Below, in pieces: positions 38,016-53,697 of a stretch of 64,000 nt of DNA. Position 1 is the stretch's first letter; each line of letters opens with the position of its first letter. Source of the stretch: Candidatus Hodarchaeum mangrovi (GTDB lineage: Archaea > Asgardarchaeota > Heimdallarchaeia > Hodarchaeales > Hodarchaeaceae). The position numbers and the translations under genes were made by a program. The stretch is from NCBI GenBank assembly GCA_016839515.1, contig JAEOUE010000197.1, positions 12,766 to 76,765 of the forward strand, written 5' to 3'. The notes under the pieces were generated by a model. It made no database searches and was not told the DNA's origin. It saw only the letters and a list, made by a program, of their open reading frames with translations.

Positions 38016-40040
38016 ATGAATAAAATGTCAAATTTAGATGTATATGCGATTTCAAAGGAACTCCAAGCTCTTGTTGGATATAGAGTAGATAATATTTATC
38101 GTGATTCATCGGATAGTTTTTATTTGTTTAAATTTAAAGGAACTGGGAGTTTTAAAAATCCAATATTATTGATAGAACCAGGAGTCCGTTTTCATTTAAC
38201 AGAATACAAACATGAAGTACCTCAGCGTCCAACGGAGAAGATTATGGCAGTAAGAAAACATTTAAAGGGTTCAGAATTAGTTAAAATTTGTCAAGTTGAA
38301 TTTGATAGAATTATAGAGATGACATTGGTAGGAAAGCAGAAGTATCGAGTTTATGTTGAGCTTTTTGGGACAAAACCAAATTTTGTTATTGTGGGAGAGG
38401 AGAATAAGGTAATTTCAGCTTTGTGGTATAGAAAAATGCGTCATCGCGATCTTTTACCAGGTAAGGAGTTTGAATTACCTCCAAGTAGTGGAAAGTCAAT
38501 ATTTCAACTTAGTCTTGAGGAATTAAAATCAAACCTAGCTTCCAGTGAATATCAAAACGAGGAAATTGTTAGAGTATTAGTACGTAAATTTGGGGGAGGA
38601 GGGGGCCTTATGGAAGAAATTTTATACAGAGCTGGGATTTTAAAATCAATTCACTGCTCTGAAATAACAGAAAAAGAAATTATGACTTTTTTATCTATTT
38701 TCAAAGAAATAGAAATAGAATTAATCAACTTAAATCCTTCTGTAATTCTTGATAAAGACAATAAACCAGTTTTATATCAACCAATAACTCTAAGATCAAT
38801 AGATGGTTTTTTAAGAAAGTTTGATACTTTTTCTGCTGCTATGGACTATTATTACTCTTCTACTCTTCCTCAGATTTCCACAAGTATAATATCAATTGAT
38901 CGAAAGCGGAAAAAGATACTAGCAATAAAGGAGAAACAGGAAAAAGCAATTAAAGAGTTTACAGCGAAGGAAATGAGATACAAATTGCTTGGAGACCGAA
39001 TTTACGAGAATTTTCATTTAATTGATGATTTATTAAGTACAATAATGCAGGCACGTAAAAAGAATATATCCTGGGAGGAGATTATGAAAAAATTTGAAAG
39101 TGCAGGAACTCACAGCTTTCCTTCTTTGAAAATTCTCAAAGAAATAGTTCCCGAAAAAGGAAAAATTATTCTAATATTGGATTCAGAAGAAGTTGAAATC
39201 GATTTTCGAAAATCTGCTTCAAATATAGCTAATGATTTCTATGAAAATGCCAAAAAAGTATCAAGGAAAATTGTACCAGCCCAAGAAGCTCTTGAAAAAA
39301 CAATTGAGAGACTAAATAACCTATCAGAGGAACTTACTATTCAAAAAGAAGCTGCATCGTTGAATTTAAAGAGACGAAAAAGAAAATGGTATGAAAAATT
39401 TCATTGGACTTATTCAAAAAATAATTTTCTAATTATTGGAGGAAAAGATATTTCAGGAAATGAAGAGTTAGCTAAACGGCGATTAAATGAGACTGACCTA
39501 TTTTTTCATGCTGAGCTTCAAGGTGCTCCTTATACTATATTGAAACGAGAATCCAATGATTTGGATCCTTCAGAAGAAGACATTAAAACTGCTGCTCAAT
39601 TAGCTGCTTGTTTTTCAAGTGGTTGGAAAGTTGGATATGGTGCAGTAGATGTCTATTATGTAACTGGTTCAAATGTGAGTTTTTCAGCACCAAGTGGTGA
39701 ATATATACCAAAGGGGGGAATAATGATTAAAGGAACTAGGAATTATATCAGGGGAGTTGAATTAATTCTAGCAATCGGTATAGAATTTGATGAATATTCC
39801 GCTAGAATAATTTATGGAAATGAAGAAAAAATAAAACTAGTAAGCCAAAATTACATTTTGATCAAACCTGGTTCCGAACCAAAAGGAAAATTAGCAAAAA
39901 AAATCCAAAAAGTCTTTATTGAGAATGCTAACTCATCTGAAGAGCAAGCAAAAATACGTGCGATAGATTTGAACGAATTTGTTCACGCCATACCACATAA
40001 TTCAGTGATCTATAATGTTTTCTTTTCTAAATCAGTCTAA
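38016..40040 (+). CDS. rqcH: Ribosome quality-control factor Rqc2/NEMF (RqcH, NFACT)
   Basis: MSNLDV, RKHL, FDRI, VELFG..PN, WYEKFHW, IGGKD...NE, FFHAELQGAP, APSGEYI.KG...IKG.RNY. Confidence 0.93.
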   Translation: MNKMSNLDVYAISKELQALVGYRVDNIYRDSSDSFYLFKFKGTGSFKNPILLIEPGVRFHLTEYKHEVPQRPTEKIMAVRKHLKGSELVKICQVEFDRIIEMTLVGKQKYRVYVELFGTKPNFVIVGEENKVISALWYRKMRHRDLLPGKEFELPPSSGKSIFQLSLEELKSNLASSEYQNEEIVRVLVRKFGGGGGLMEEILYRAGILKSIHCSEITEKEIMTFLSIFKEIEIELINLNPSVILDKDNKPVLYQPITLRSIDGFLRKFDTFSAAMDYYYSSTLPQISTSIISIDRKRKKILAIKEKQEKAIKEFTAKEMRYKLLGDRIYENFHLIDDLLSTIMQARKKNISWEEIMKKFESAGTHSFPSLKILKEIVPEKGKIILILDSEEVEIDFRKSASNIANDFYENAKKVSRKIVPAQEALEKTIERLNNLSEELTIQKEAASLNLKRRKRKWYEKFHWTYSKNNFLIIGGKDISGNEELAKRRLNETDLFFHAELQGAPYTILKRESNDLDPSEEDIKTAAQLAACFSSGWKVGYGAVDVYYVTGSNVSFSAPSGEYIPKGGIMIKGTRNYIRGVELILAIGIEFDEYSARIIYGNEEKIKLVSQNYILIKPGSEPKGKLAKKIQKVFIENANSSEEQAKIRAIDLNEFVHAIPHNSVIYNVFFSKSV

Positions 40041-41060: not shown

Positions 41061-44000
41061 TTAGAAAAGAGTTGTAGGACGTAATCCAATCTCAAATACC
41101 TGACGCTTATTTATTTCTAGTAATTTTATCCAAGAGTCTAAATATTGCGAAATACTTGAAGCATAATTTTCTTCTAGTTGCGTTATAATTTGTGTGTATC
41201 GCAATACCCAGCCTTCAGAAAGAGTTAACCCGATCTTTTCTTGTCCACAGGATGAACATTTACCTGATAGAGGGATACGTCGGAAGTTTCGGTTACATCT
41301 TAGACATCTAAAAGGTTGAGAGAAGAATTTTTCTAAAGAAGAGTTATATTTTTCTAAAAAATCGTTTTCTAATATTTTTTCAACAAACTCACTCTCTTGA
41401 GTACCCTGAATTTTTTTAAGGATTGAAAGACTTGATTGAATCTTTGAAATAAGTTTACTCTGTTTAAGCGGATTACTAATATTAAATCCTGAGATGTTGT
41501 CAATCTTATGAATTTTTGGATAAGAGTAATTTAAATTAGAAATTTTGTAGACCAGAAGATCTTTTTTGGTAGGATTACTTTTTAATTCTCTGAAAAATAG
41601 TAGATTCATAGGAATGGATTCACTCATTGCATAGAATGACAAATCTTCCCAAGAATCTGGCATATTCAAAACCATAGGGACATCCATTGTTCCCCCTCTA
41701 GTAGTGGGAATAAATTCTTCAGAAAAATTAATTAAAACATCAAGTAGAAGAGTAAACGAGTCTATGTCTCCATTACAGTTACGTCCCTTTAATTTATGCC
41801 AAACTGGATGTGCATAAAGAACATCAGTTGTGGTAGAACCAATAATTCGTCCGATCACTCCAACCTTAGAAAAAGGGGAAATTCCGACAATCAAAGAACC
41901 CATTAGATCTTGGAAGGATTTTAATCTGAAATAGGCTGGCAAATCGTAAAATTCAGTTAATTCATCATCAATAAATTTAGTTAGTTTTAAAAGAAATTTT
42001 TCAGATGACTTACTAATAATAACATCATATGGAAAGAGTTCTATTAATTGATTTTCATTTTCTAGCTGCTTTCCTTCAATATCATGGTCATAACCAAGAC
42101 GGATAAGATCTTCAATCGATGTTCCTACTTCCAGAGGTTTGAAACATAATAAGGGGGCATTTGTAGTATCAAACCGACTAGTTCCATCTTTATAGACATA
42201 TATATCATGTCTTGCTCTCAAAACACCTTTGTTGAGATTCTCTGGAATTTTATTTTTAGTATTAAGATAAGAAACCGCTTTAAATTTTTCTAAATTTGAA
42301 ATATCACTTTTATTTACCTTTAGCAGTTCCTCAAAGGCTACAGAATGTGGTTTAGAAGGAACACCATAATTTCCACATACAGGACAATTTTTTGTTTCAA
42401 AAGTATGGTTATTTCTGCACAAAAGTTTTTGAGTTGTTTCTTGATTACAGTCTGGGCAGTAAACATAATAAACTGTTTTTTGACAGGACGAACAGTATCG
42501 GTTCGAAAGGTTAAGAATTACTGCCTTTTCTTTTATTACTTTTAATAAATTTCTTTGAGACCCTCCTAAGGATCCGATGGGAAAAAGAACGTGAGATGGA
42601 GGATTTATATGACGAGGTTCAGCTTTTTCTACTCGAACTATCTGAGTACCAAGTCTACGTTTTGATTTTGATCTTATTGGTACTCCGATTAATTTAGATA
42701 CAATTTCCTCAGTCTCATCCTCAATGGAGAGATTATTTATTATTTGATCTAAATCAAGATTTTCATCTTTTAAACGAGTTAAAATGTGCTGAAAATTATC
42801 AAATTCAATCCTTTCATTACTAACAGAAAAAGGAACACCTAAAAAACTTAGAATCCTTTTCATTTCATCATTATTGGGAATTTTTGGTTCTTCATTCTTA
42901 ATAATATGGTCTAATAAAAGAATTAAATCACTAATAGCTATATTATTCCAATTAAAAGAAAATTTAGGGTGCAAAGGCACTTTTGTTAATTTAGATATCA
43001 AATAAACTTTTTCAGGATTCAATTTAAAGACTGATGGATTATCAAGACAACTTTTTAAAATATTGAAGTCAACAGATAAAGCTCGTGCTAAATTTTGAAT
43101 CGAACCAAATTTCCTTATTGAGGCATTAATCACCTCCATTGCCCACCATTCCTCGGTCCAGGAAGATATATCAAAAGCTTCCTGATCAGGAATATCATCA
43201 GGACAAAGTAATAATTCTCCTAATTCCCAGATTTGTATGATTCTATTTTCATATTCTTTAAATGTTTCAATATTGTCAATCCGTACTAAAGAGCCATCTT
43301 CAATTGTTACTAAAGGACCTGTTAAACTAGAAACAGGAAGTGTTATTAAATTTCGTTCTATTAAGTCAATTTTTATTGACGTTCCTGGCGAAATGATTTT
43401 TAAAAGCATCATTGTCGCTGGATTTACACCAACTGAACCAAATCCAGTATTACGTGTGCGTCCATACCTTAATTGAAACCCCCCTGGACCAGATGATTTT
43501 GATAACAATGGTTGAGTACCTCGAATTTCTCGATCACCAAAAACTAGTTTATTCTTTTTTACAAAATGAAAACTTCTATCTAACCAGTTCCATTCTGGAA
43601 TTTCAGCTAAAATTTTATATCGAGTAATCAGGTTTATATTATCCATAAAACGTTCTAATGCTACACACATTCCCATTCTTAATTGGTTTGATAGAGGTGG
43701 AAGATTTCTATATTTAACAACCTCAATTCTTTCATAGGATTCACCTGAGATTTCAATACCAATATTTTGGAGTATTAATTTCGCTAAATCCTTTTTCAAA
43801 TCAGGAATTCGATCACTTAGCTCATAATAAAGCTCTAATTCCTCAATATATCTTCCTATCATTTCAGGTGTAGCGTTAAATCGATTTAGATGCAAGATTC
43901 TGCGTAGGTAATCCGCAATTAGAACAACTAATCCTATTACTTCCCCAGGGACATAACGAATAGTATTGGAAAAAAAAATTGTCAAATGTGAAGTCTTTTC

Positions 44001-44381
44001 TGAAATAGCTATTTTTGGAATAGCCTCTTCGGGAACAGAAATCAATCCTTGACTTAAGATAACACATGCGCTTTGGAGTGCAATTAGAATTAGCTCCTCT
44101 CGAGGCAATTTTAAATAATAACCGTTTACTATCTGTTTGGCTATTTCTGCTGCAAGTAAAAGTGAGTTCTCATGGAAAACGATGTTTGATGGCAAATTTT
44201 CTTCTAAACCAGCAATATTTATGATTGAGGAAATTCTTAACTTTACAGAATATGTTATTATCGATTCTACGTTACATCTTGGGTCATATTTCCGATTTCG
44301 TGCTTGTTGTGCTAAAGAAAATTGATTGTTCAATGATTTTTTTATCTGTGTAACATAATTGGTGAATTCTGGAAAAATCAT
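41061..44381 (-). CDS. polC: DNA polymerase D large subunit (DP2) homolog, divergent and possibly inactive
   Basis: GGFQLRYGRTRNTG, W.EEWW, VPLHP, HVLFPIG..GG.QR, KGVLRA.H...YKDGT.RFD, RGG.MD.P and the C-terminal FRC..C...RR.PL.GKC are retained, but the catalytic motif reads GRNCNGDID. Confidence 0.9.
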   Translation of the reverse strand: MIFPEFTNYVTQIKKSLNNQFSLAQQARNRKYDPRCNVESIITYSVKLRISSIINIAGLEENLPSNIVFHENSLLLAAEIAKQIVNGYYLKLPREELILIALQSACVILSQGLISVPEEAIPKIAISEKTSHLTIFFSNTIRYVPGEVIGLVVLIADYLRRILHLNRFNATPEMIGRYIEELELYYELSDRIPDLKKDLAKLILQNIGIEISGESYERIEVVKYRNLPPLSNQLRMGMCVALERFMDNINLITRYKILAEIPEWNWLDRSFHFVKKNKLVFGDREIRGTQPLLSKSSGPGGFQLRYGRTRNTGFGSVGVNPATMMLLKIISPGTSIKIDLIERNLITLPVSSLTGPLVTIEDGSLVRIDNIETFKEYENRIIQIWELGELLLCPDDIPDQEAFDISSWTEEWWAMEVINASIRKFGSIQNLARALSVDFNILKSCLDNPSVFKLNPEKVYLISKLTKVPLHPKFSFNWNNIAISDLILLLDHIIKNEEPKIPNNDEMKRILSFLGVPFSVSNERIEFDNFQHILTRLKDENLDLDQIINNLSIEDETEEIVSKLIGVPIRSKSKRRLGTQIVRVEKAEPRHINPPSHVLFPIGSLGGSQRNLLKVIKEKAVILNLSNRYCSSCQKTVYYVYCPDCNQETTQKLLCRNNHTFETKNCPVCGNYGVPSKPHSVAFEELLKVNKSDISNLEKFKAVSYLNTKNKIPENLNKGVLRARHDIYVYKDGTSRFDTTNAPLLCFKPLEVGTSIEDLIRLGYDHDIEGKQLENENQLIELFPYDVIISKSSEKFLLKLTKFIDDELTEFYDLPAYFRLKSFQDLMGSLIVGISPFSKVGVIGRIIGSTTTDVLYAHPVWHKLKGRNCNGDIDSFTLLLDVLINFSEEFIPTTRGGTMDVPMVLNMPDSWEDLSFYAMSESIPMNLLFFRELKSNPTKKDLLVYKISNLNYSYPKIHKIDNISGFNISNPLKQSKLISKIQSSLSILKKIQGTQESEFVEKILENDFLEKYNSSLEKFFSQPFRCLRCNRNFRRIPLSGKCSSCGQEKIGLTLSEGWVLRYTQIITQLEENYASSISQYLDSWIKLLEINKRQVFEIGLRPTTLF

Positions 44382-45085
44382 GAAAGAATCCTAATCCCAT
44401 TAGGTAAAGTTACGTTAAGTATACCAATATTATTTATTGAAGTAAGTTTATCGAAATAGAACACTCCAGTTTGGTTTAAATATGGATTGGGTATCAATGG
44501 TATAGTTCCATTTAAAATAAAGATACTATAGGGATTTGTTGGCTGAAAAGATTCTCTTCGTTTACTAAAAATAAAGATCTGATTATCAAATACTTCAACA
44601 CGAGCATGGAATACTAAATTAAATATCTCTTCTATAGTTAGGGAAGTCGTCAAGCTTGTTAATTTTAATTTAAAGTTTGCTGAAACTTCACTAGAATAAA
44701 TATTTCCATTGGTCACATTTGTATATGGTGGTTGTTTTGCATTCATTTGAAAAGTTTCTTCAATAAATGAGAATTCCGCTAGTATACCTCTGGTTATTGC
44801 CAAATATTCTAAATTTTTCAAAAAATCTTTAATAGACAGTTTAGCATTTTCTTGAGACATTCCTGAGTTATTTTGCGTGTATTTGGATAAAATATATTCT
44901 AAAAAGTTTTGAATTTCCCTTTTAGAGTCGAAATATGGTTCTGAGAGAGATTCTCTATTAAATTCAAGTTGATTTACTTGTATGTTCATTAAAGCTGCAG
45001 CCATTGAAACAATATAAATCGCTATAAGCATTGTTGCTAAAATAAACATTTGCCCCTGTCTTGATTTATTAAATAACTTCTGCAT
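44378..45085 (-). CDS. Pilin-like protein with class III signal peptide
   Basis: KSRQG|QMFILATMLIAIYIV. Confidence 0.8.
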   Translation of the reverse strand: MQKLFNKSRQGQMFILATMLIAIYIVSMAAALMNIQVNQLEFNRESLSEPYFDSKREIQNFLEYILSKYTQNNSGMSQENAKLSIKDFLKNLEYLAITRGILAEFSFIEETFQMNAKQPPYTNVTNGNIYSSEVSANFKLKLTSLTTSLTIEEIFNLVFHARVEVFDNQIFIFSKRRESFQPTNPYSIFILNGTIPLIPNPYLNQTGVFYFDKLTSINNIGILNVTLPNGIRILS

Positions 45086-45607
45086 CTATATTTTCTCCCA
45101 TAAATAAAGTTTAACTAAATAGCCATTCTGAAATTGACCATATTCTGCAGATGTGTATGATCCAAGATGATAATTAATAATTACTCCCTCTCCTCCAGTT
45201 TGAAGTGCTGCAATATCTGCAGCTGAGCCTAAAATCGTGTTATATGAATCAGAAGGCACTCCATTGACTAAATCATGAGCAATAAGTATAAAACCATAAT
45301 TATCACTCAAAATAGAAGTAATATAGGCATCTAGAAGACTAAGAAAATAGGTTGCTTCATCTGAATAAATAGGATTGAATTTAAGATAAATAGAAGGTCT
45401 AAGATAGCCTGCTTCGTCAGCTGTGCTTAAAATGTCATAGCCAGTTCGATCTAGAAATTTATATGATTGAGGAGGATTTAAGCTTTGGTCCGCAGCATTA
45501 ATAAGCAATAGAGCGAGAACTAACATTAAAGAAACAGCTACCAATGTTTCAGCAATTTGTAACTGACCACGCTGTCTCCTTTTTTTTAAATATTTCATTT
45601 TACTCAC
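45086..45607 (-). CDS. Pilin-like protein with class III signal peptide
   Basis: KKRRQRG|QLQIAETLVAVSLMLV. Confidence 0.82.
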   Translation of the reverse strand: MSKMKYLKKRRQRGQLQIAETLVAVSLMLVLALLLINAADQSLNPPQSYKFLDRTGYDILSTADEAGYLRPSIYLKFNPIYSDEATYFLSLLDAYITSILSDNYGFILIAHDLVNGVPSDSYNTILGSAADIAALQTGGEGVIINYHLGSYTSAEYGQFQNGYLVKLYLWEKI

Positions 45608-46772
45608 TCCAAAGAGTTATTTGACATCGCATTAATAAACCACGGACAATCACAGGATAAGTTTTACTCAATAAAGCTTTGATTCTAATATTATCACTTA
45701 TATGACCCAAAGTATTATAATACTGTCCTTGTTCCTCTGTTTTATCCAAAATAGCTGGATAAGTTCCAATACCAACTCTATAATAATCCGTATATTGTGA
45801 AATACTAAGAAGTATGACAAGGCCAGTTTCTGGTAGTAATATTGTTTCATTTCCATCCCAAGATATAGACCCTAAATCTAGAAAATGTGATGAATATGAA
45901 TGTAATGTATCTTTGTAGATTATCGAAATGAAATGATTAACAGGTGTATCTGTTGTAGGTAAAGTATCGCTTACAAGCAAAGCTGAAGAATTAATGCCAC
46001 CTCCCCAAATAGTCGTACTTGAAGAAGATCCGATAAAAGCTTGAGGAAAAACAGAGTCTATGCTTCCCCAATTTACACCCCAAAGAACACCTGTCTCGGC
46101 TACTACCAAGATGACATGTTGTCCATCTGGATCATTAAAATGCGGAATCTCATACGTATAAGAACTCCCTCCAGTAGAATTCGTGAGTAGATCCTCTCCG
46201 TATAGCAATTGTGCATCTTTTAAGTTAACAACTATTACTTTAGAATTAGCTTTAGGGATTGGAGTATTGTAAGGATTTGTAACAACAAATTCTACTCTAT
46301 TATGGGTTTGATTTACACTGATTAGAGTAAGAGATATCTTTAGGCTTTGTTGAAGGGAGATTTGAAATTCTCTCTTTCCAGATAATTTTATAACATCTTT
46401 CAAAGTTTCATAATCATAATTATTCATTCCAGAGATAGTAGAAATTCCCGTTCCACTAATAAGACGAGCAATTTTGGCAGCATCCAGAGCAAAATATCCA
46501 TAATAATGACTAGTGGCTAAACCGAAATTATTAGGTAAATTTTTTAGATATCCCCAATCATCTGTTCCTGATTCCTGTAATATCATACGGCTAAAATTGT
46601 CGAGATCATCATATGAGATTGTCCCTACATCAGTACGATTAATATTAGATTGAATGTTAATTATAATAAGGAGTAATTGTGAAAGCATTAACAAGAAAAG
46701 GAAAAGACTGATGACAAAGTCCACAGCTCTCATTTGTCCTTTTCGTTTTTTGTTTAAAAGTTGAAATATCAT
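45600..46772 (-). CDS. Large pilin/adhesin-like protein with class III signal peptide
   Basis: KKRKG|QMRAVDFVISLFLFLL; G..DWG and FGLA motifs, Ig-like insert. Confidence 0.82.
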   Translation of the reverse strand: MIFQLLNKKRKGQMRAVDFVISLFLFLLMLSQLLLIIINIQSNINRTDVGTISYDDLDNFSRMILQESGTDDWGYLKNLPNNFGLATSHYYGYFALDAAKIARLISGTGISTISGMNNYDYETLKDVIKLSGKREFQISLQQSLKISLTLISVNQTHNRVEFVVTNPYNTPIPKANSKVIVVNLKDAQLLYGEDLLTNSTGGSSYTYEIPHFNDPDGQHVILVVAETGVLWGVNWGSIDSVFPQAFIGSSSSTTIWGGGINSSALLVSDTLPTTDTPVNHFISIIYKDTLHSYSSHFLDLGSISWDGNETILLPETGLVILLSISQYTDYYRVGIGTYPAILDKTEEQGQYYNTLGHISDNIRIKALLSKTYPVIVRGLLMRCQITLWSE

Positions 46773-46814
46773 TTATGCTTCCCATCATATTGTGATAATT
46801 TGTTAATTAACATC

Positions 46815-47261
46815 CTAAGAAATATCATCGGTTGATCCAACATTAGAAACTTCTAGCTGAATTACAATTTCCTCCAATTTATCCTTTAATTCAAGTAAGG
46901 TGGTTTCTAATTCAGTTAGCTGTAATCCTTTCTCTAAAAGAGTTGTTGCTTGAGCAATTAACTCATCTGCTTTTTCAGCTTTCTCTGATCTTATATTTGA
47001 AGTGATCTCTGATAGTGTATTCACTTTTAAAGTTAATTCAGAGATATTTTTTTCCATAATTCCTAATCTTCCTTCAATTGGTGCAAAATCGACTTCTACA
47101 GGGCCAACTGCAACATTAGGAGCTGAAGAAGAGATTGGTTTTGGTAATGAACCCCCTGAACCCATGCCTTGGACAAGTAGAAATTCCATATTAGTAAGTT
47201 TGTCTTCCAAACTAGATATTTTTTCTAATATTTCTGTTAATACCTTTTCATCTTTACCCAT
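46815..47261 (-). CDS. Cytoplasmic coiled-coil protein within the pilus operon
   Basis: Heptad-rich with a G/S/P linker and no TM segment. Confidence 0.7.
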   Translation of the reverse strand: MGKDEKVLTEILEKISSLEDKLTNMEFLLVQGMGSGGSLPKPISSSAPNVAVGPVEVDFAPIEGRLGIMEKNISELTLKVNTLSEITSNIRSEKAEKADELIAQATTLLEKGLQLTELETTLLELKDKLEEIVIQLEVSNVGSTDDIS

Positions 47262-47277
47262 TATATCACCATTTATC

Positions 47278-48234
47278 CTAGAAAAGCAGAACAGTTATTT
47301 TAAAGAAAGCATAGGAGATAATCAATAGAATACATGAATGTCTCAAGCCTATTTTAGCATCTCCTTCACCCATTTTTCCTGAAATTAATCCAGCAAATAT
47401 TGCTTCAATAATCATAAGGTGGAAAAAGAGTAATTGAAGTCCTGCAACATTCGATGGGAGTTTTGCAGTTGCTACTTGTCCAGCTGAAACAGCATCAACT
47501 ATTTGAACTGCAAGGGTTTGGAAGAAGGAATAAAGTAAGATAATCATTACAATCGCAAATACAATGAAAGAGGCATATATTATCCAAGTATAAGGTTTCA
47601 TTGCTGAAAGTCTTTCCCGTTTTAAACCTAAAATCTCAGAAACATGGTTATGTGCAGATTCAAATACATCTTCAATGGCTCCACCTGATCGTTCAGCCTC
47701 TAAAATCAACAGCGAGGTTCGCTTCATTAAAGGAGTGTCTGCAGTTTCAGTTAAACTTCGAAGAGCTTTGCTAAAAGGTATTCCCCAACTTATTTTAGCG
47801 GCCATTTTTTTTAATTCTGGTGTAAGAGCTCCATATTGATGCTTTGAGGATTCCATTATTGCTCTAGGTAATGGTAAACCTGTTTTTTGAGCATCAGAAA
47901 TCTCTCTAAGAAGAGAAGGAATGTGGTCATCAATATTATCCCGCCATTTTTGATTCGAATGATAAGCTAGAGCAGGTATTAAAAGGAGAGCTAGAGCTAG
48001 TAATACTGTAATATCTAAAACATCAAAAAACTTGAAGATAGGATCTAAAGAGACCTCACGTATAGTGAATAAGTAAGGATCATTTTCAATAGGAGGATAA
48101 ACAGGTTCTGTTCTTTCAACAATATGCTGAATAACTGGACTATAGAAAAATAATGAAATCACTAATGTAACAAGAAACAAAAATATTGAGAGTATCCAAA
48201 TCCTTTGTTCACCTTTTGTAGTAAGTTTTCCCAT
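47278..48234 (-). CDS. Type IV pilus membrane platform protein (TadC/PilC-like)
   Basis: IP.LLREISDAQKTG, YGALTPEL, AERSGG, GLISGKMGEG....GL.H. Confidence 0.92.
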   Translation of the reverse strand: MGKLTTKGEQRIWILSIFLFLVTLVISLFFYSPVIQHIVERTEPVYPPIENDPYLFTIREVSLDPIFKFFDVLDITVLLALALLLIPALAYHSNQKWRDNIDDHIPSLLREISDAQKTGLPLPRAIMESSKHQYGALTPELKKMAAKISWGIPFSKALRSLTETADTPLMKRTSLLILEAERSGGAIEDVFESAHNHVSEILGLKRERLSAMKPYTWIIYASFIVFAIVMIILLYSFFQTLAVQIVDAVSAGQVATAKLPSNVAGLQLLFFHLMIIEAIFAGLISGKMGEGDAKIGLRHSCILLIISYAFFKITVLLF

Positions 48235-48250
48235 TCTTTCTTGCCTCCAT

Positions 48251-49174
48251 TTAAATTTCTCGTGATATTGTTGAAATTAGTAAAAGCATCACTGTTAATA
48301 GGATTGGCATCAAAAAATAGGTAAGTAGAACCATAATTATTCCACCTACAGTTGCATCCTTAGTGATAACAGCTAAAATAGCAATAATAACAACAAAGAA
48401 AAGAGGTGAAACTACTCCGATGATCATAAAAATTTCTGATAAAACCCCTAATTGTTCAATAAACTCTTTTGTTTCTTCTTCTTTAAGTTTCATTAGCGCT
48501 TTACTCTCAGCTGTTAAGAAAAAAGTTAAATCACCACCGCTAGTCACTGTTGCAGACATACCATCAAGAAATTTGGAGAATCTTTCTGAAGGAGACCGTT
48601 CGCTCGCAGTTCTAAGTGCTTTTAAAATATCATAACCAAAAATTTCAATATCACGTGTTATACGTTTACTCTCCTTGGAAATTTCAGGAGCGACTGATTC
48701 TTCACCTGCAAGTGAGTAGAATAATCTATCTGGGGGAACTCCAGAACTTGACATAGCAGACAGATAAGAAGCGGTTGATGGTAAACCAGCTTCAATAAGA
48801 ATTTTACGATCAGCAGCCTTCATTTGAGGCCAATATATGAATGGAATATAGGTTATTATGGCAAAAAATATTCCTAGTATTATGCCTATAATAATACTCA
48901 ATAATAATTGTCCATTGGCGTTGATTTGAGGAGTTAATGATTGAACAAGTATTAATACTAATCCTGTACTAAAAAATAAGACTAATAATCCAACAATAAT
49001 TGAACTGAGTATTGCACTTCCAAGATATGCACGAACAGAAATGTCTATTCCTGCTTTTTTTAAACTTCGACCTAATCGCTTAAACTTTCCCCCTTCAATC
49101 CATGGTTCTAGATACCTCCCAAAACGGAGATAACCAACTCGCCTTATAAACTTACTCAAAGTAAAACGCTCCAC
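48251..49174 (-). CDS. Type IV pilus membrane platform protein (TadB/PilC-like)
   Basis: LKKAGI, LP...SYL.AMSSSG, FGYDIL.AL, SPS..F..FL, SGGDL..FL. Confidence 0.92.
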   Translation of the reverse strand: MERFTLSKFIRRVGYLRFGRYLEPWIEGGKFKRLGRSLKKAGIDISVRAYLGSAILSSIIVGLLVLFFSTGLVLILVQSLTPQINANGQLLLSIIIGIILGIFFAIITYIPFIYWPQMKAADRKILIEAGLPSTASYLSAMSSSGVPPDRLFYSLAGEESVAPEISKESKRITRDIEIFGYDILKALRTASERSPSERFSKFLDGMSATVTSGGDLTFFLTAESKALMKLKEEETKEFIEQLGVLSEIFMIIGVVSPLFFVVIIAILAVITKDATVGGIIMVLLTYFLMPILLTVMLLLISTISREI

Positions 49175-49182
49175 AACGATTT

Positions 49183-50691
49183 TTAGACAGCTTTTAGTTC
49201 TCTTTTTGCTCGATCTACAGTTTCTAAAGGATTTTGATAATAATTGTTAATAACTTCAGCAACTTGTGTGTAATGGGCCAATTTTTTCTTTACTTGCCAT
49301 CTTAAAATGGTTTTTCGCCTCTCAATTTCTTCATAAACTTGGGAATCTGTCAATCCTTGGCCTTCTTGTATTCCTTCAAGAATATAAGACCTTCCATAAT
49401 TGATAAAGGCGTCTTCGCGTGCATTCCAACCAAAAACTTTATTTGTTATTAACTCTGTGGTTACCGGATCAATTCCCACGATTTCTGTCGCCTCAATAAC
49501 CCTTCTTACTTGCTTATCCCCACGTCGAACCTTTCGAAGGACAATAAGCAGATTTAGAGTTTGAATTAATGTTCGAGGAATATTCATGGGTTCATTTTCA
49601 AGTCGACGTATAGTTCCTGTAACACTATCTCCGTGTATTGTACCCATTCCTGTATGTCCTGTTGCCATGGCTTGGAAAAGGTTATAAGCTTCCGAACCAC
49701 GAACTTCACCAACAAATAAATAATCAGGCCTTTGTCGCAATGCAGCACGAAGTAGATCATACATTGATACTTCCCCACGTCTAGATCCATCTATTTCTCG
49801 TCCACCATATCCTTCTCGAGCCACGGCTGGAATCCAATTTTCATGTGGTAAATGAAGTTCTGCAGTATCTTCAATAGATACTATTTTCATTCCTGGTCGA
49901 ATAAACATTGCTAAACTATTAAGAAGTGAAGTTTTACCTGCAGCTGTACCTCCAGCGATAACTACTGAATTTCTATTCTCTAAAGCATACCAAAGAAACG
50001 CTGCAAGATCTTCATCAATTGTATTGAATGTTATCATATCAGTTATGGTTAGTGGATCAGAACGAAATTTTCTGATTGTAAAAGTACTACCCCTTTGAGT
50101 AACTTCTCTACCATATGTTAACTGCAGACGACTCCCATCAGCAAGAGCTGCATCTAATAAAGGTCGTGCAACACTAATATGACGTCCTGAACGCTGAGCA
50201 AGCTTAATAATAAAGGCATCCAGATCATCTTCGTTATCAAATTTTATATTAGTTTGAATACTTTCAAATTTTCGGTGCCAGATATAAACAGGAATTCCAA
50301 CCCCATCACACGAAATGTCTTCAACATTATGGTCCTTTAGCATTGCATCTATAGGTCCAAATCCCACAAAATCTCGTGTTATATGATAATTGATTTTGTC
50401 AAATGTTTTCTCATCTAATTTTAAACCGTAATTTTTAGCAATACCGATGACTTTCTGTCTTAAGTAATCTCGAGCAACCTCAGGGTTTTTAAGAACATTA
50501 AAGTCGACATCTAATTCTTCTTCTAATGTACTCTTGATCATATCCAAAATTTCTTTCTCTTTAGCACTAAGAGGAACTTCAACGACGGTATATTTAGTTT
50601 GTTTTGATTCTGGGTCAGTTGCAACTAGTGCGTAACTAAATGGGGGGATTAAAGGATATGTTTCACGAATTAAACTACTCGATTCGGACAT
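49183..50691 (-). CDS. Type IV pilus assembly ATPase (archaeal PilB/FlaI/VirB11 family)
   Basis: VEDISCDG, FTIRKF, GGTAAGKTS, SIEDTAE, ALRQRPD...VGEVRG.EA, AMATGH. Confidence 0.96.
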   Translation of the reverse strand: MSESSSLIRETYPLIPPFSYALVATDPESKQTKYTVVEVPLSAKEKEILDMIKSTLEEELDVDFNVLKNPEVARDYLRQKVIGIAKNYGLKLDEKTFDKINYHITRDFVGFGPIDAMLKDHNVEDISCDGVGIPVYIWHRKFESIQTNIKFDNEDDLDAFIIKLAQRSGRHISVARPLLDAALADGSRLQLTYGREVTQRGSTFTIRKFRSDPLTITDMITFNTIDEDLAAFLWYALENRNSVVIAGGTAAGKTSLLNSLAMFIRPGMKIVSIEDTAELHLPHENWIPAVAREGYGGREIDGSRRGEVSMYDLLRAALRQRPDYLFVGEVRGSEAYNLFQAMATGHTGMGTIHGDSVTGTIRRLENEPMNIPRTLIQTLNLLIVLRKVRRGDKQVRRVIEATEIVGIDPVTTELITNKVFGWNAREDAFINYGRSYILEGIQEGQGLTDSQVYEEIERRKTILRWQVKKKLAHYTQVAEVINNYYQNPLETVDRAKRELKAV

Positions 50692-50835
50692 TTATTCCTA
50701 ACCTTCTATTTATTAATTAATTAATGGAGTTAAAAATTTCTCATTAGGTTAACAATTTTATTTAGATTTTAATTTAATTATTTATGTATTTGATTTTTTA
50801 GATGTGATTATTAGGATTATGTAATATCTCAAATA

Positions 50836-51288
50836 TTAAGTTATCTGGATATTAAGATCCAGCCCAATCTTTCCTATAGATAAAATAAGTATCTCATTGA
50901 CGCTTTGAAAAGCTGTATTTGCCACAATAAGGTTGAATTTACTGTTGATCATGAACGATTGTATACGATTTACTTCATATTTCGTGGTAAAGCCATGAAG
51001 TTGGATTTCATTATTAGATACATTAGTTATTTCAATAGAATAACGAAGTCCTTGACCAAGTAGCGATGGGAGATTTATATATTGGTTTATTGTAATATTT
51101 CCAGAGTCACAAAGTTGCAATGATTGCTGGATTTGACTTTGCAGAAATTCGAGAATTTCTCGCATTTCTAGATTAGCTAAATTATCCCGAAATTCTTCAC
51201 TTAAAGTAAGAAACATTGAATTAGTCAAAATCACTAAGCTTAAACCTAGAGTAAAAATCATCATAAAAGTAATATATTGAGACGCCAT
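50836..51288 (-). CDS. Pilin-like protein (N-terminal hydrophobic helix)
   Basis: MASQYITFMMIFTLGLSLVIL followed by an amphipathic helix and a beta-rich body; operon position. Confidence 0.65.
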   Translation of the reverse strand: MASQYITFMMIFTLGLSLVILTNSMFLTLSEEFRDNLANLEMREILEFLQSQIQQSLQLCDSGNITINQYINLPSLLGQGLRYSIEITNVSNNEIQLHGFTTKYEVNRIQSFMINSKFNLIVANTAFQSVNEILILSIGKIGLDLNIQIT

Positions 51289-52653: not shown

Positions 52654-53697
52654 ATGTCCCCAAAGAAAAAAATCGAAAATTCAGAGGACGTAGAAGAAGA
52701 GAAGTCAGAAGATAAGAGCAGAAAAACCTCTAAACTAACTAGCATTACAGATCTTCCAGGAGTTGGGCCATCGACTGCTCAAAAACTAATAGAAGCAGGA
52801 TTTTCCACATTAGAAGCCATAGCAACGGTTTCTGTTGGAGAATTAGCCTCAATTGCTAATATGGGGGAGAAAACAGTGACTAAAATAATCGAGTCAGCGA
52901 GGGAGGCCTTAGATATAGATTTTGAGACTGCTAAATCAGTCTTAAATCGAAGAAGAGAATTAGCTAAAATAACTACTGGAAGTAAACAATTAGATGAATT
53001 ATTTGGAGGAGGAATTGAAACTGGAGCTATAACTGAGCTTTATGGAGAATTTAGAACAGGTAAAACCCAAATTGCGCATCAATTATGTGTTACAGTTCAA
53101 TTGCCAAGAGAAAGAGGTGGTTTAAAAGAAGGAGATAATTTACCTAAAGTTGTATATATTGATACTGAAGGAACTTTTAGACCTGAAAGGATCGTGGCTA
53201 TGGCTGAACGATGGAAAGATGTATTAGAGGTAGATATAGCTCTTGAGAATATTCTACATGGAAGAGCTCACAATAGTGATCATCAAATGGTATTAGTGGA
53301 AAAGATGATTAAAGAATATATTCCTGTTCAGAATGTTCGATTACTAATTGTAGATTCGTTAATTTCGCATTTCCGTGCAGAGTATGTAGGAAGAGGAACA
53401 CTAGCATCTCGTCAACAAAAACTCAATCAACACATTCATACAATTCTACGTGCTGCTGAGGTTGGTAATATCGCAGTAATTGTGACTAATCAAGTACATG
53501 CAAAACCTGATCAATTTTTTGGCGATCCAACAGCTCCAGTAGGAGGGCATATTGTAGCTCATGCAGCACAAACCCGTGTTTATCTCCGAAAATCAAAAGG
53601 AGAAAGAAGAATTGCACGAATCGTTGATAGTCCCCTCTTACCAGAGAGTGAAGCAATTTTTGGGGTAACTGCAGAGGGAATAATTGATGTTGAATAG
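52654..53697 (+). CDS. radA: DNA repair and recombination protein RadA
   Basis: N-terminal Hh[51 protein letters not shown]. Confidence 0.98.

Follow-up and report, generated by a model that had tools for sequence, protein, structure and literature searches.

Outside Crenarchaeota, PolD is generally regarded as the essential archaeal replicase, and Hodarchaeales are one lineage that has been argued to lie closest to the eukaryotes. A stretch of 64,000 nucleotides from Candidatus Hodarchaeum mangrovi (contig JAEOUE010000197.1, positions 12,766 to 76,765; the whole of this stretch is the window) carries a gene for DP2, the large subunit of PolD, in which the acidic motif of the catalytic site is altered. 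The locus raises the question of whether this protein can still polymerise and, if it cannot, why it is kept. Comparison with its relatives points to an orthologous single-copy DP2 that would have lost polymerase catalysis and been kept as a non-polymerising subunit, a reading to which we give a probability of about 0.68.

The argument starts from the gene and its acidic motif:

41061..44381, minus strand: DP2 gene (PolD large subunit), an intact open reading frame (ORF) of 1106 aa with Pfam and NCBIfam matches, the sole DP2 found in the genome

41760..41786, minus strand: degenerate acidic (a-) motif, G866-R-N-C-N870-G-D872-I-D874, where canonical DP2 has R-R-N-C-D-G-D-E-D

The Pfam models PolC_DP2_N, central and catalytic (PF03833, PF24844 and PF24846) all match above cut-off (E 2e-38 to 2e-79), P. 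abyssi DP2 (6hms_B) aligns with an E value of 4e-160 (HMMER), and TIGR00354 is barely passed (710 bits, cut-off 702), residues 5–1097 of the query being collinear with the NCBIfam model. The equivalog level, PRK04023, is missed (790 bits, cut-off 1269), and the label ‘hypothetical protein’ borne by Hodarchaeales DP2 at NCBI (cluster of protein P0002; the IMG label is ‘DNA polymerase II large subunit’) fits a score under that cut-off. As the original prediction had described, positions 41760–41783 of the window read CGT AAC TGT AAT GGA GAC ATA GAC on the minus strand (R-N-C-N-G-D-I-D), within HKLKGRNCNGDID, which forms residues 862–874 of the ORF. The HMMER alignment sets h-k-l-k-g-r-n-c-n-g-d-i-d of the query opposite h-a-a-k-r-r-n-c-d-g-d-e-d of 6hms_B, and counting along it places N870 at P. 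abyssi (Pab) D956, D872 at D958 and D874 at D960. Contigs from four public runs of four studies, one of them maybe the source sample, cover the motif with zero differing letters.

The consequences of changing these residues are known from other PolDs. In the P. abyssi enzyme an alanine scan identified the two invariant Asp, D956 and D958, as critical (Sauguet et al. 2016, PMC4996933), the acidic motif has been given as NxDGD preceded by two conserved Arg (Zatopek et al. 2020, PMC7708050), and in 9°N PolD either D964A or D966A abolishes extension (PMC7708050). The Asp replaced in the query corresponds to the first of this pair, in which a change of either residue to Ala abolishes PolD activity (PMC4996933, PMC7708050), which gives good support to the earlier description of the site as inactivated.

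A HMMER search of 1.84 billion cluster representatives was used for a protein-level survey, in which the best 150 hits were examined together with the query (151 proteins); the motif was read by phmmer alignment, and its segment could be aligned in 149. Among these, the first Asp is D in 141 and N in six (the query and five Hodarchaeales-like clusters), is replaced by G in P0088 and is unaligned in P0062, while the second is D in 143, E in four and V in two. The restriction of Asn to Hodarchaeales-like clusters and the agreement of the public-run contigs argue against chance or sequencing error as its source. The original prediction had also pointed to two remaining Asp in GDID; both D872 and D874 are indeed there, but D874, taken there as a ligand, occupies a position that is free to vary in canonical DP2 (among other residues A, T, L, N and S).

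The same change runs through the genomes of the lineage. A contig search with the single DP2 protein returned no relative and one with an alignment (A1) returned 20 loci; a DP2 protein search matched 39 of 41 genomes, the two unmatched ones being 71% and 64% complete. Within the genus (21 genomes, the query’s own plus 20), N replaces the first Asp in 20 and S does so in one, the second Asp is kept in 15 and lost in six (A, V or N), and the third is kept in 21/21. Of two genomes from the sister family, one (G023) reads T-A-N-G-D-I-D and has a degenerate downstream GGxMD motif, and the other (G022) has no Asp within the motif segment. Three other families of Heimdallarchaeia show CDGDED in 8/9 loci, five of which carry an intein that separates RN from CDGDED; the remaining locus (L027, genome G032) gave no motif read-out with the pattern used. 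The query is a deep branch of the genus, with at most 55% identity to any other sequence; B3_Heim (L053) is among its relatives (46% identity), and the cluster names read Candidatus Hodarchaeales. In a FastTree phylogeny of 61 DP2 proteins, 18 genus-type and two sister-family sequences split from 41 canonical ones (branch support 100, length 0.7); we use this tree for clade membership only and not for rooting or the order of events, since it was built with FastTree only and its sister-family branches are very long. Judged on these sequences, an altered or more eroded site is fixed across the order, and the erosion is graded. The possibility that Asn is the usual state of single-copy Asgard DP2 thus holds for Hodarchaeales only, with an altered site in 21/21 genus genomes, and not for other Heimdallarchaeia or other archaea.

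One protein from outside the order also stood out in the survey. P0088, a 1152-aa DP2 from JGI/IMG, reads C-G-G-E-V-D, has Arg for the critical Lys, P-K-A for PHT and His for the first Arg of the acidic motif, and keeps 65/91 of the signature columns defined below; the tree groups it with canonical sequences and not with Hodarchaeales. Its degenerate site looks independent, and P0088 may represent another lineage whose PolD is dead.

The original prediction had called the gene a paralog. On that explanation the DP2 of the window would be an extra copy and a canonical DP2 would be hidden in the unassembled part of a genome that is 91% complete and lies in 348 contigs. The 4.0-Mb assembly has a single DP2, matched in one place each by the Pfam catalytic and central models, and each relative likewise has one DP2 gene, double rows being contig-split halves or parts flanking an intein; this includes G009, a relative assembled as one contig of 4.9 Mb. 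Among the 22 matched Hodarchaeales genomes, none showed a DP2 with a canonical motif. A hidden second copy is therefore very improbable, and we rejected the paralog reading on the order-wide single copy.

The acidic motif is not the only part of the active site to have changed, and several structural elements have not:

43941..43964, minus strand: KH-like template-guiding motif, T140-I-R-Y-V-P-G-E147 (canonical PIRxxGGT)

43509..43517, minus strand: T289-Q-P instead of the conserved G-R-P

43353..43373, minus strand: basic (b-) motif region, K337-I-D-L340-I-E-R343 (canonical K-T-E-R-P-G-K), placed by the 6hms_B alignment

42624..42644, minus strand: Q580-I-V-R-V-E-K instead of R-x-G-R-P-E-K, with R580, G582 and P584 lost and R583 and E585 kept

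42375..42494, minus strand: central Cys clusters (C630, C633, C642, C645; C655, H659, C666, C669), all retained

41868..41876, minus strand: selectivity (s-) motif, P836-F-S838 instead of PHT, with the steric-gate His lost

41247..41309, minus strand: retained Zn-III finger in the C-terminal domain, including the DP1-binding loop R1034-R1035-x-P1037

41064..41108, minus strand: C-terminal peptide, K1092 ... G-L-R-P-T-T-L-F, replacing the canonical PIP-like QxxLxxF[FMI] ending

The further motif changes listed in the original prediction proved real (IRYVPGE at residues 141–147, QLRMG at 233–237, TQP at 289–291 and QIVRVEK at 580–586), and several fall on residues with a described role. In the acidic motif, R866 and D870 are conserved in 100% and 99%, respectively, of 67 canonical DP2 and are G/T/S and N/S in 18 Hodarchaeales DP2; one of the two phosphate-contacting Arg is Gly in the query (G866). 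The critical Lys of the basic motif (K in 66/67 canonical DP2) is R343, and P341, G342 and K343, each at least 96% conserved canonically, are lost in Hodarchaeales; the K398A mutant of 9°N PolD shows severely reduced extension, and a K-to-R change at the equivalent residue of the E. coli RNA polymerase (RNAP) beta subunit abolishes transcription (PMC7708050). The PHT selectivity motif with its steric-gate His has been called ‘invariable across all PolDs’ (PMC7708050); the His is present in 67/67 canonical DP2 and is replaced by F (13), T (4) or I (1) in the 18 Hodarchaeales proteins. PIRxxGGT, the KH-like motif, is positioned next to the template (Raia et al. 2019, PMC6355029). At the G-R-P site, G and R are 99% conserved canonically, and T and Q stand in their place in 16/18 Hodarchaeales DP2.

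To place these substitutions against the whole protein, 91 signature columns, each at least 95% conserved in the 67 canonical DP2, were scored in the 18 Hodarchaeales DP2: 60 are kept, 24 lost and seven partly kept. Per sequence, the query retains 65/91 and Hodarchaeales 60–67, against a canonical median of 90 and at least 86 in full-length canonical proteins. The losses, which include D870, R866, H837, K343 (now R), P341/G342, G145/T147 and G289/R290, are concentrated in the KH-like motif and the acidic, basic and selectivity motifs, plus GRP and RxGRPE. All Zn ligands are kept, as are KDGTxRFD, GYxHD, GGxMDxP and RRxP. The residues of the central Cys/His clusters are invariant in 17/17 genus sequences (C630, C633, C642 and C645 in 18/18), and C1026, C1029, C1042, C1045, R1035 and P1037 are preserved in 18/18, in agreement with the earlier statement that the 1106-aa frame and the Zn fingers are intact. 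Two low canonical scorers (60 and 70 of 91) were considered as further dead DP2s and rejected: P0151 is a truncated protein, and P0148 breaks off into non-DP2 residues inside the acidic motif, which we read as a presumed intein junction.

Because an essential Asp has become Asn and the basic-motif Lys, the acidic-motif Arg, the steric-gate His and the KH-like motif have changed as well, the predicted inactivation of Hodarchaeales DP2 as a polymerase is well supported. The tail has changed in another manner. The canonical ending, PIP-like QxxLxxF[FMI], which in P. abyssi binds both PCNA and primase (PMC7101311), is replaced in the genus by a conserved ...LLFDxGPRPTTL[IF], with K1092, F1096, G1099, T1103 and L1105 invariant in 17/17 sequences; this replacement suggests that partner binding through the tail changed rather than vanished.

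Selection still acts on the gene in spite of the altered active site. Across three genus pairs (Nei–Gojobori, dS 0.36–0.96), the ratio of nonsynonymous to synonymous substitution (dN/dS) of DP2 is 0.09–0.14 overall; the one canonical control pair from Heimdallarchaeia is dS-saturated, so that these values have no like-for-like canonical comparison. By domain, dN/dS is as follows:

N-terminal domain: 0.05–0.13

Central domain: 0.12–0.18

‘Catalytic’ domain: 0.065–0.087

C-terminal domain: 0.064–0.10

DP2 is under purifying selection in all domains. Seventeen full-length DP2 could be aligned, and among the loci read only that of genome G015 has an interrupted frame. These data speak against a decaying, functionless relic, a pseudogene in the making, which could otherwise be seen in the progressive erosion of catalytic residues across the order, the in-frame stop of G015 and the ‘hypothetical protein’ label of the relatives at NCBI. 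With dN/dS near 0.1 in every domain, intact full-length frames, 60/91 signature columns and all Zn ligands retained, we find such a relic hardly credible and rejected it, and the earlier argument against a pseudogene stands.

The small subunit of PolD is encoded elsewhere in the genome:

Genome G000, contig C295 (L033, 694–2280), plus strand: DP1, 528 aa, matching solved DP1 at an E value of 1e-45

The ORF adjoining it, judged by eye, resembles an Orc1/Cdc6-type AAA+ protein. DP1 is present in 20/21 genus relatives; searches with the protein or PF04042 gave no DP1 in G006 (71% complete) or in either sister-family genome (85% and 80%), which is not evidence of absence. DP1 dN/dS is 0.14–0.21, indicating purifying selection. 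The published Zn-III KxRRxP loop is located at the DP1 interface (PMC6355029). A full-length AlphaFold2 model of DP2 built on a 17-row genus alignment was poor (mean pLDDT 50.3, pTM 0.32) and was not used. A predicted complex of DP1 (residues 120–517) with the DP2 C-terminal region (960–1106) scored 0.79, against 0.00 for the best of three controls, a mark reached in calibration by 58/80 solved complexes and 2/110 mismatched pairs; contact agreement between runs was at least 68%, partner pLDDT was at least 66, and the contacts centred on DP2 residues 1034–1043. This model supports binding of DP1 to the C-terminal region of DP2, although the pass may reflect likeness to known complexes rather than constitute proof, since PolD complexes have already been solved.

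The state of DP1 also bears on what the pair might do. All 19 genus sequences (the query’s own and L063–L080) have intact phosphodiesterase (PDE) motifs I, II, IV and V/VI. Motif III reads GEHD in 18/19 and GERD in G010, whose DP2 also bears an odd motif (C-S-G-N-I-D), and it is GNHD in 11/11 other Heimdallarchaeia; the Asn of GNHD is Pab N453, one of seven metal ligands in P. abyssi DP1, and is Glu in all genus members. PolD could on this basis have become a dedicated nuclease, with DP2 serving only as a clamp that holds DNA for the Mre11-like 3′–5′ exonuclease of DP1 in trans proofreading or end processing. The retained motifs (the His of motif III is lost only in G010), the purifying selection on DP1, motif retention even in five genomes whose DP2 lost both Asp and the retained DP1–DP2 interface are all consistent with it. 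The ligand change to Glu in every genus member, the degenerate template-guiding KH motif of DP2 and the two sister-family genomes in which DP1 was not found tell against it, and the DP1 of LC3 is held to be inactive, with only that of B3 possibly active (Kazlauskas et al., PMC7544198). A dedicated nuclease is, in our view, rather unlikely.

If DP2 no longer polymerises, DNA synthesis has to be sought among the other polymerases. B-family polymerases (PolB) are encoded by four genes of the genome; two have YGDTDS, a third is B2-like and bears an intein, and the fourth (1440 aa) has DTDG:

Genome G000, contig C34, 28247–32629, minus strand: Pol-epsilon-like PolB (group B10), 1440 aa

The nearest solved relatives of this protein are Pol epsilon catalytic subunits (E value of 1e-59, against about 1e-14 for archaeal PolB). 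At an E value of 1e-20 or better it occurs in 20/21 relatives of the genus (family f1) and in 2/2 genomes of the sister family (f2) and in 0/17 of families f3–f5, the same distribution as that of the degenerate DP2. It has a Cys-rich insert in its polymerase domain and a single C-terminal CxxC-x13-CxxC finger without an RRxP loop; in several relatives the gene carries an insertion, with open frames of 1900–2020 aa and the match split in two.

We propose that bulk DNA synthesis would be carried out by B-family polymerases, above all the B10 PolB, and that the DP2–DP1 pair may survive as a structural module, possibly as a platform for the DP1 nuclease; for this the pair would rely on the known PolD contacts with GINS/CMG, primase and the clamp.

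Several observations weigh against a DP2 retained purely as a non-polymerising subunit. The ‘catalytic’ domain is the most constrained part of DP2, which would fit a retained or changed activity equally well. D872 and D874 are still present in the query, and D874 is invariant in 21/21 genus genomes at a position that is variable in canonical DP2, so that it may have some role. The DP2 of G015, a one-contig relative, has one in-frame TGA (L007, G015:C1:2667766-2671077), which may reflect either an assembly error or genuine disruption of the gene. The query’s own assembly is just 91% complete, leaving room for a second DP2. DP1 of the genus keeps 6/7 metal ligands, with a fixed N-to-E change, and the complex may hence be an active nuclease and not a pure scaffold. 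Comparison of the C-termini shows that the canonical PIP-like box, the usual clamp- and primase-binding peptide, is missing from the query DP2. The co-distribution of the B10 PolB with the degenerate DP2 amounts to one phylogenetic event, not to independent replicates. Finally, the C-terminus of a Hodarchaeal Pol-epsilon-like PolB made no contact with DP1 in the two-hybrid assay reported by Feng et al. 2025 (PMC12680538), which leaves a physical link between this polymerase and DP1/DP2 unsupported.

The first of these points would suit an enzyme that continues to polymerise DNA (or RNA) through a rearranged metal site, in which D872 and D874, a DxD shifted by two, act with N868 and N870, and the loss of the steric-gate His relaxes sugar selectivity. 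Two Asp are left in the query and in 15/21 genus genomes, the catalytic domain has the lowest dN/dS, and H931A PolD is still active and incorporates ribonucleotides (rNTPs) (PMC7708050). Yet the second Asp has also gone in 6/21 genus genomes and in G022 with the gene still kept; R866, the PG of the basic motif and the GG of the KH-like motif are lost; and the mutant data of the same study are unfavourable, D964A alone abolishing activity, K398A being severe, the RNAP-equivalent K-to-R change being inactive and bulky replacements of H931 having abolished activity (PMC7708050). A surviving polymerase is thus distinctly unlikely, and a retained, non-polymerising DP2 remains the reading that we prefer.

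A more specific version of that reading would make the dead DP2–DP1 pair the docking module of a split Pol-epsilon-like holoenzyme, in which the B10 PolB synthesises, DP2–DP1 tethers it to CMG, primase and clamp through the new C-terminal peptide, and DP1 acts as a working trans-proofreader. We consider this arrangement unlikely. If it were true, Hodarchaeales would preserve an intermediate of the change from a PolD-based to a PolB-based replisome that led to the eukaryotic polymerases.

DP2 is the last gene of a same-strand run that occupies positions 44378–51288 of the window (minus strand), with a four-base overlap between its ATG and the stop of the preceding ORF. The recognisable members of the run are:

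49183–50691, minus strand: T2SSE-type ATPase

48251–49174 and 47278–48234, minus strand: two T2SSF-type membrane proteins

Four small ORFs without above-cut-off Pfam matches (weak DUF7261 only) belong to the same run, which has the appearance of a type IV pilus-like cluster. Among 19 genus loci, 18 have the first of the upstream ORFs immediately before DP2 (the other locus is cut short), the more distant ORFs follow wherever the flank reaches, and 17 have a CBS-domain gene downstream. A functional link between DP2 and a pilus-like operon was considered as the main explanation and rejected, the order being found within one genus only and DP2 tracking the set of DP1 and PolB; the gene order probably reflects inheritance rather than a functional unit. 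On the downstream flank, an archaeal RqcH ribosome-rescue gene (38016–40040, plus strand) stands beside DP2 together with the CBS-domain gene, and a gene for RadA (Rad51 family, E value of 3e-92; 52654–53697, plus strand) is divergent from the pilus-like cluster.

How far these observations go beyond earlier work is best judged against Kazlauskas et al. 2020 (NAR 48:10142, PMC7544198), who describe for the Heimdall_B3/LC3-like group an inactive DP1, no active DP2 or co-occurrence with Zn-finger PolBs, report active DP2 and DP1 in other Heimdallarchaea and suggest that the loss of DP2 activity was probably enabled by the acquisition of PolB group B10. Their account covers two metagenome-assembled genomes (MAGs), with the residue-level evidence in Supplementary Figures S15 and S16. 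A full-text literature search found no other paper describing inactivation of Hodarchaeales DP2, the available part of Feng et al. 2025 on the Hodarchaeal Pol-epsilon-like PolB makes no mention of the DP2 active site (PMC12680538), and publications of 2025 record no more about PolD in Asgard archaea than that it is ‘present’ (PMC12770985). As the core fact is already in print, the present work adds breadth and detail and is not a discovery; what it adds is the order-wide breadth, the graded erosion, the three-motif loss, the evidence for selection, the N-to-E change of DP1 and the replaced C-terminal peptide.

The published group and the query agree in lineage (one clade of the DP2 tree), in a DP2 without an intact site and in co-occurrence with B10. 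They differ in that the site is followed here over 23 Hodarchaeales species genomes and not in two MAGs, and in that the query is less eroded, with one Asp lost rather than two. For DP1, five PDE motifs are present here, with GNHD changed to GEHD; the published account gives a divergent protein, inactive in LC3 and possibly active in B3 (PMC7544198). With canonical DP2 (P. abyssi and T. kodakarensis; PDB 5IJL, 6HMS, 6T8H and 6KNB), the query shares the full-length collinear frame, the three Pfam domains, the Zn fingers and the Zn-III loop, and differs in its substituted a-, b-, s- and KH-like motifs, its missing PIP-like box and its PRK04023 score (790 versus 1269).

Aenigmatarchaeota and Baldrarchaeia have likewise ceded the polymerase function of PolD to a PolB while keeping DP1 (PMC7544198, PMC12680538). 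In those lineages, however, only the C-terminal domain of DP2 survives, as a fusion to PolB, whereas Hodarchaeales retain a whole, separate DP2. The single Zn finger of their Pol-epsilon-like PolB is unrelated and lacks RRxP.

A long-dead polymerase site in a conserved protein, beside a Pol-epsilon-like PolB, would bear on how the eukaryotic replisome came to lose DP2 while its C-terminal domain and DP1 were kept, and Hodarchaeales would offer a natural system for studying the non-catalytic functions of PolD. In eukaryotic Pol epsilon, the inactivated C-terminal half assembles with the B-subunit. Inactivation of eukaryotic polymerase modules, including the PDE of B-subunits, is mentioned in the published work (PMC7544198, PMC10721889), and the likeness drawn by the original prediction to inactivated polymerase modules is reasonable, though already in print for this lineage (PMC7544198). 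By analogy, a dead polymerase fold would in both cases be kept for assembly with a DP1-type subunit; the eukaryotic module has the PolB fold and DP2 has two barrels, and the resemblance is one of logic, not of homology.

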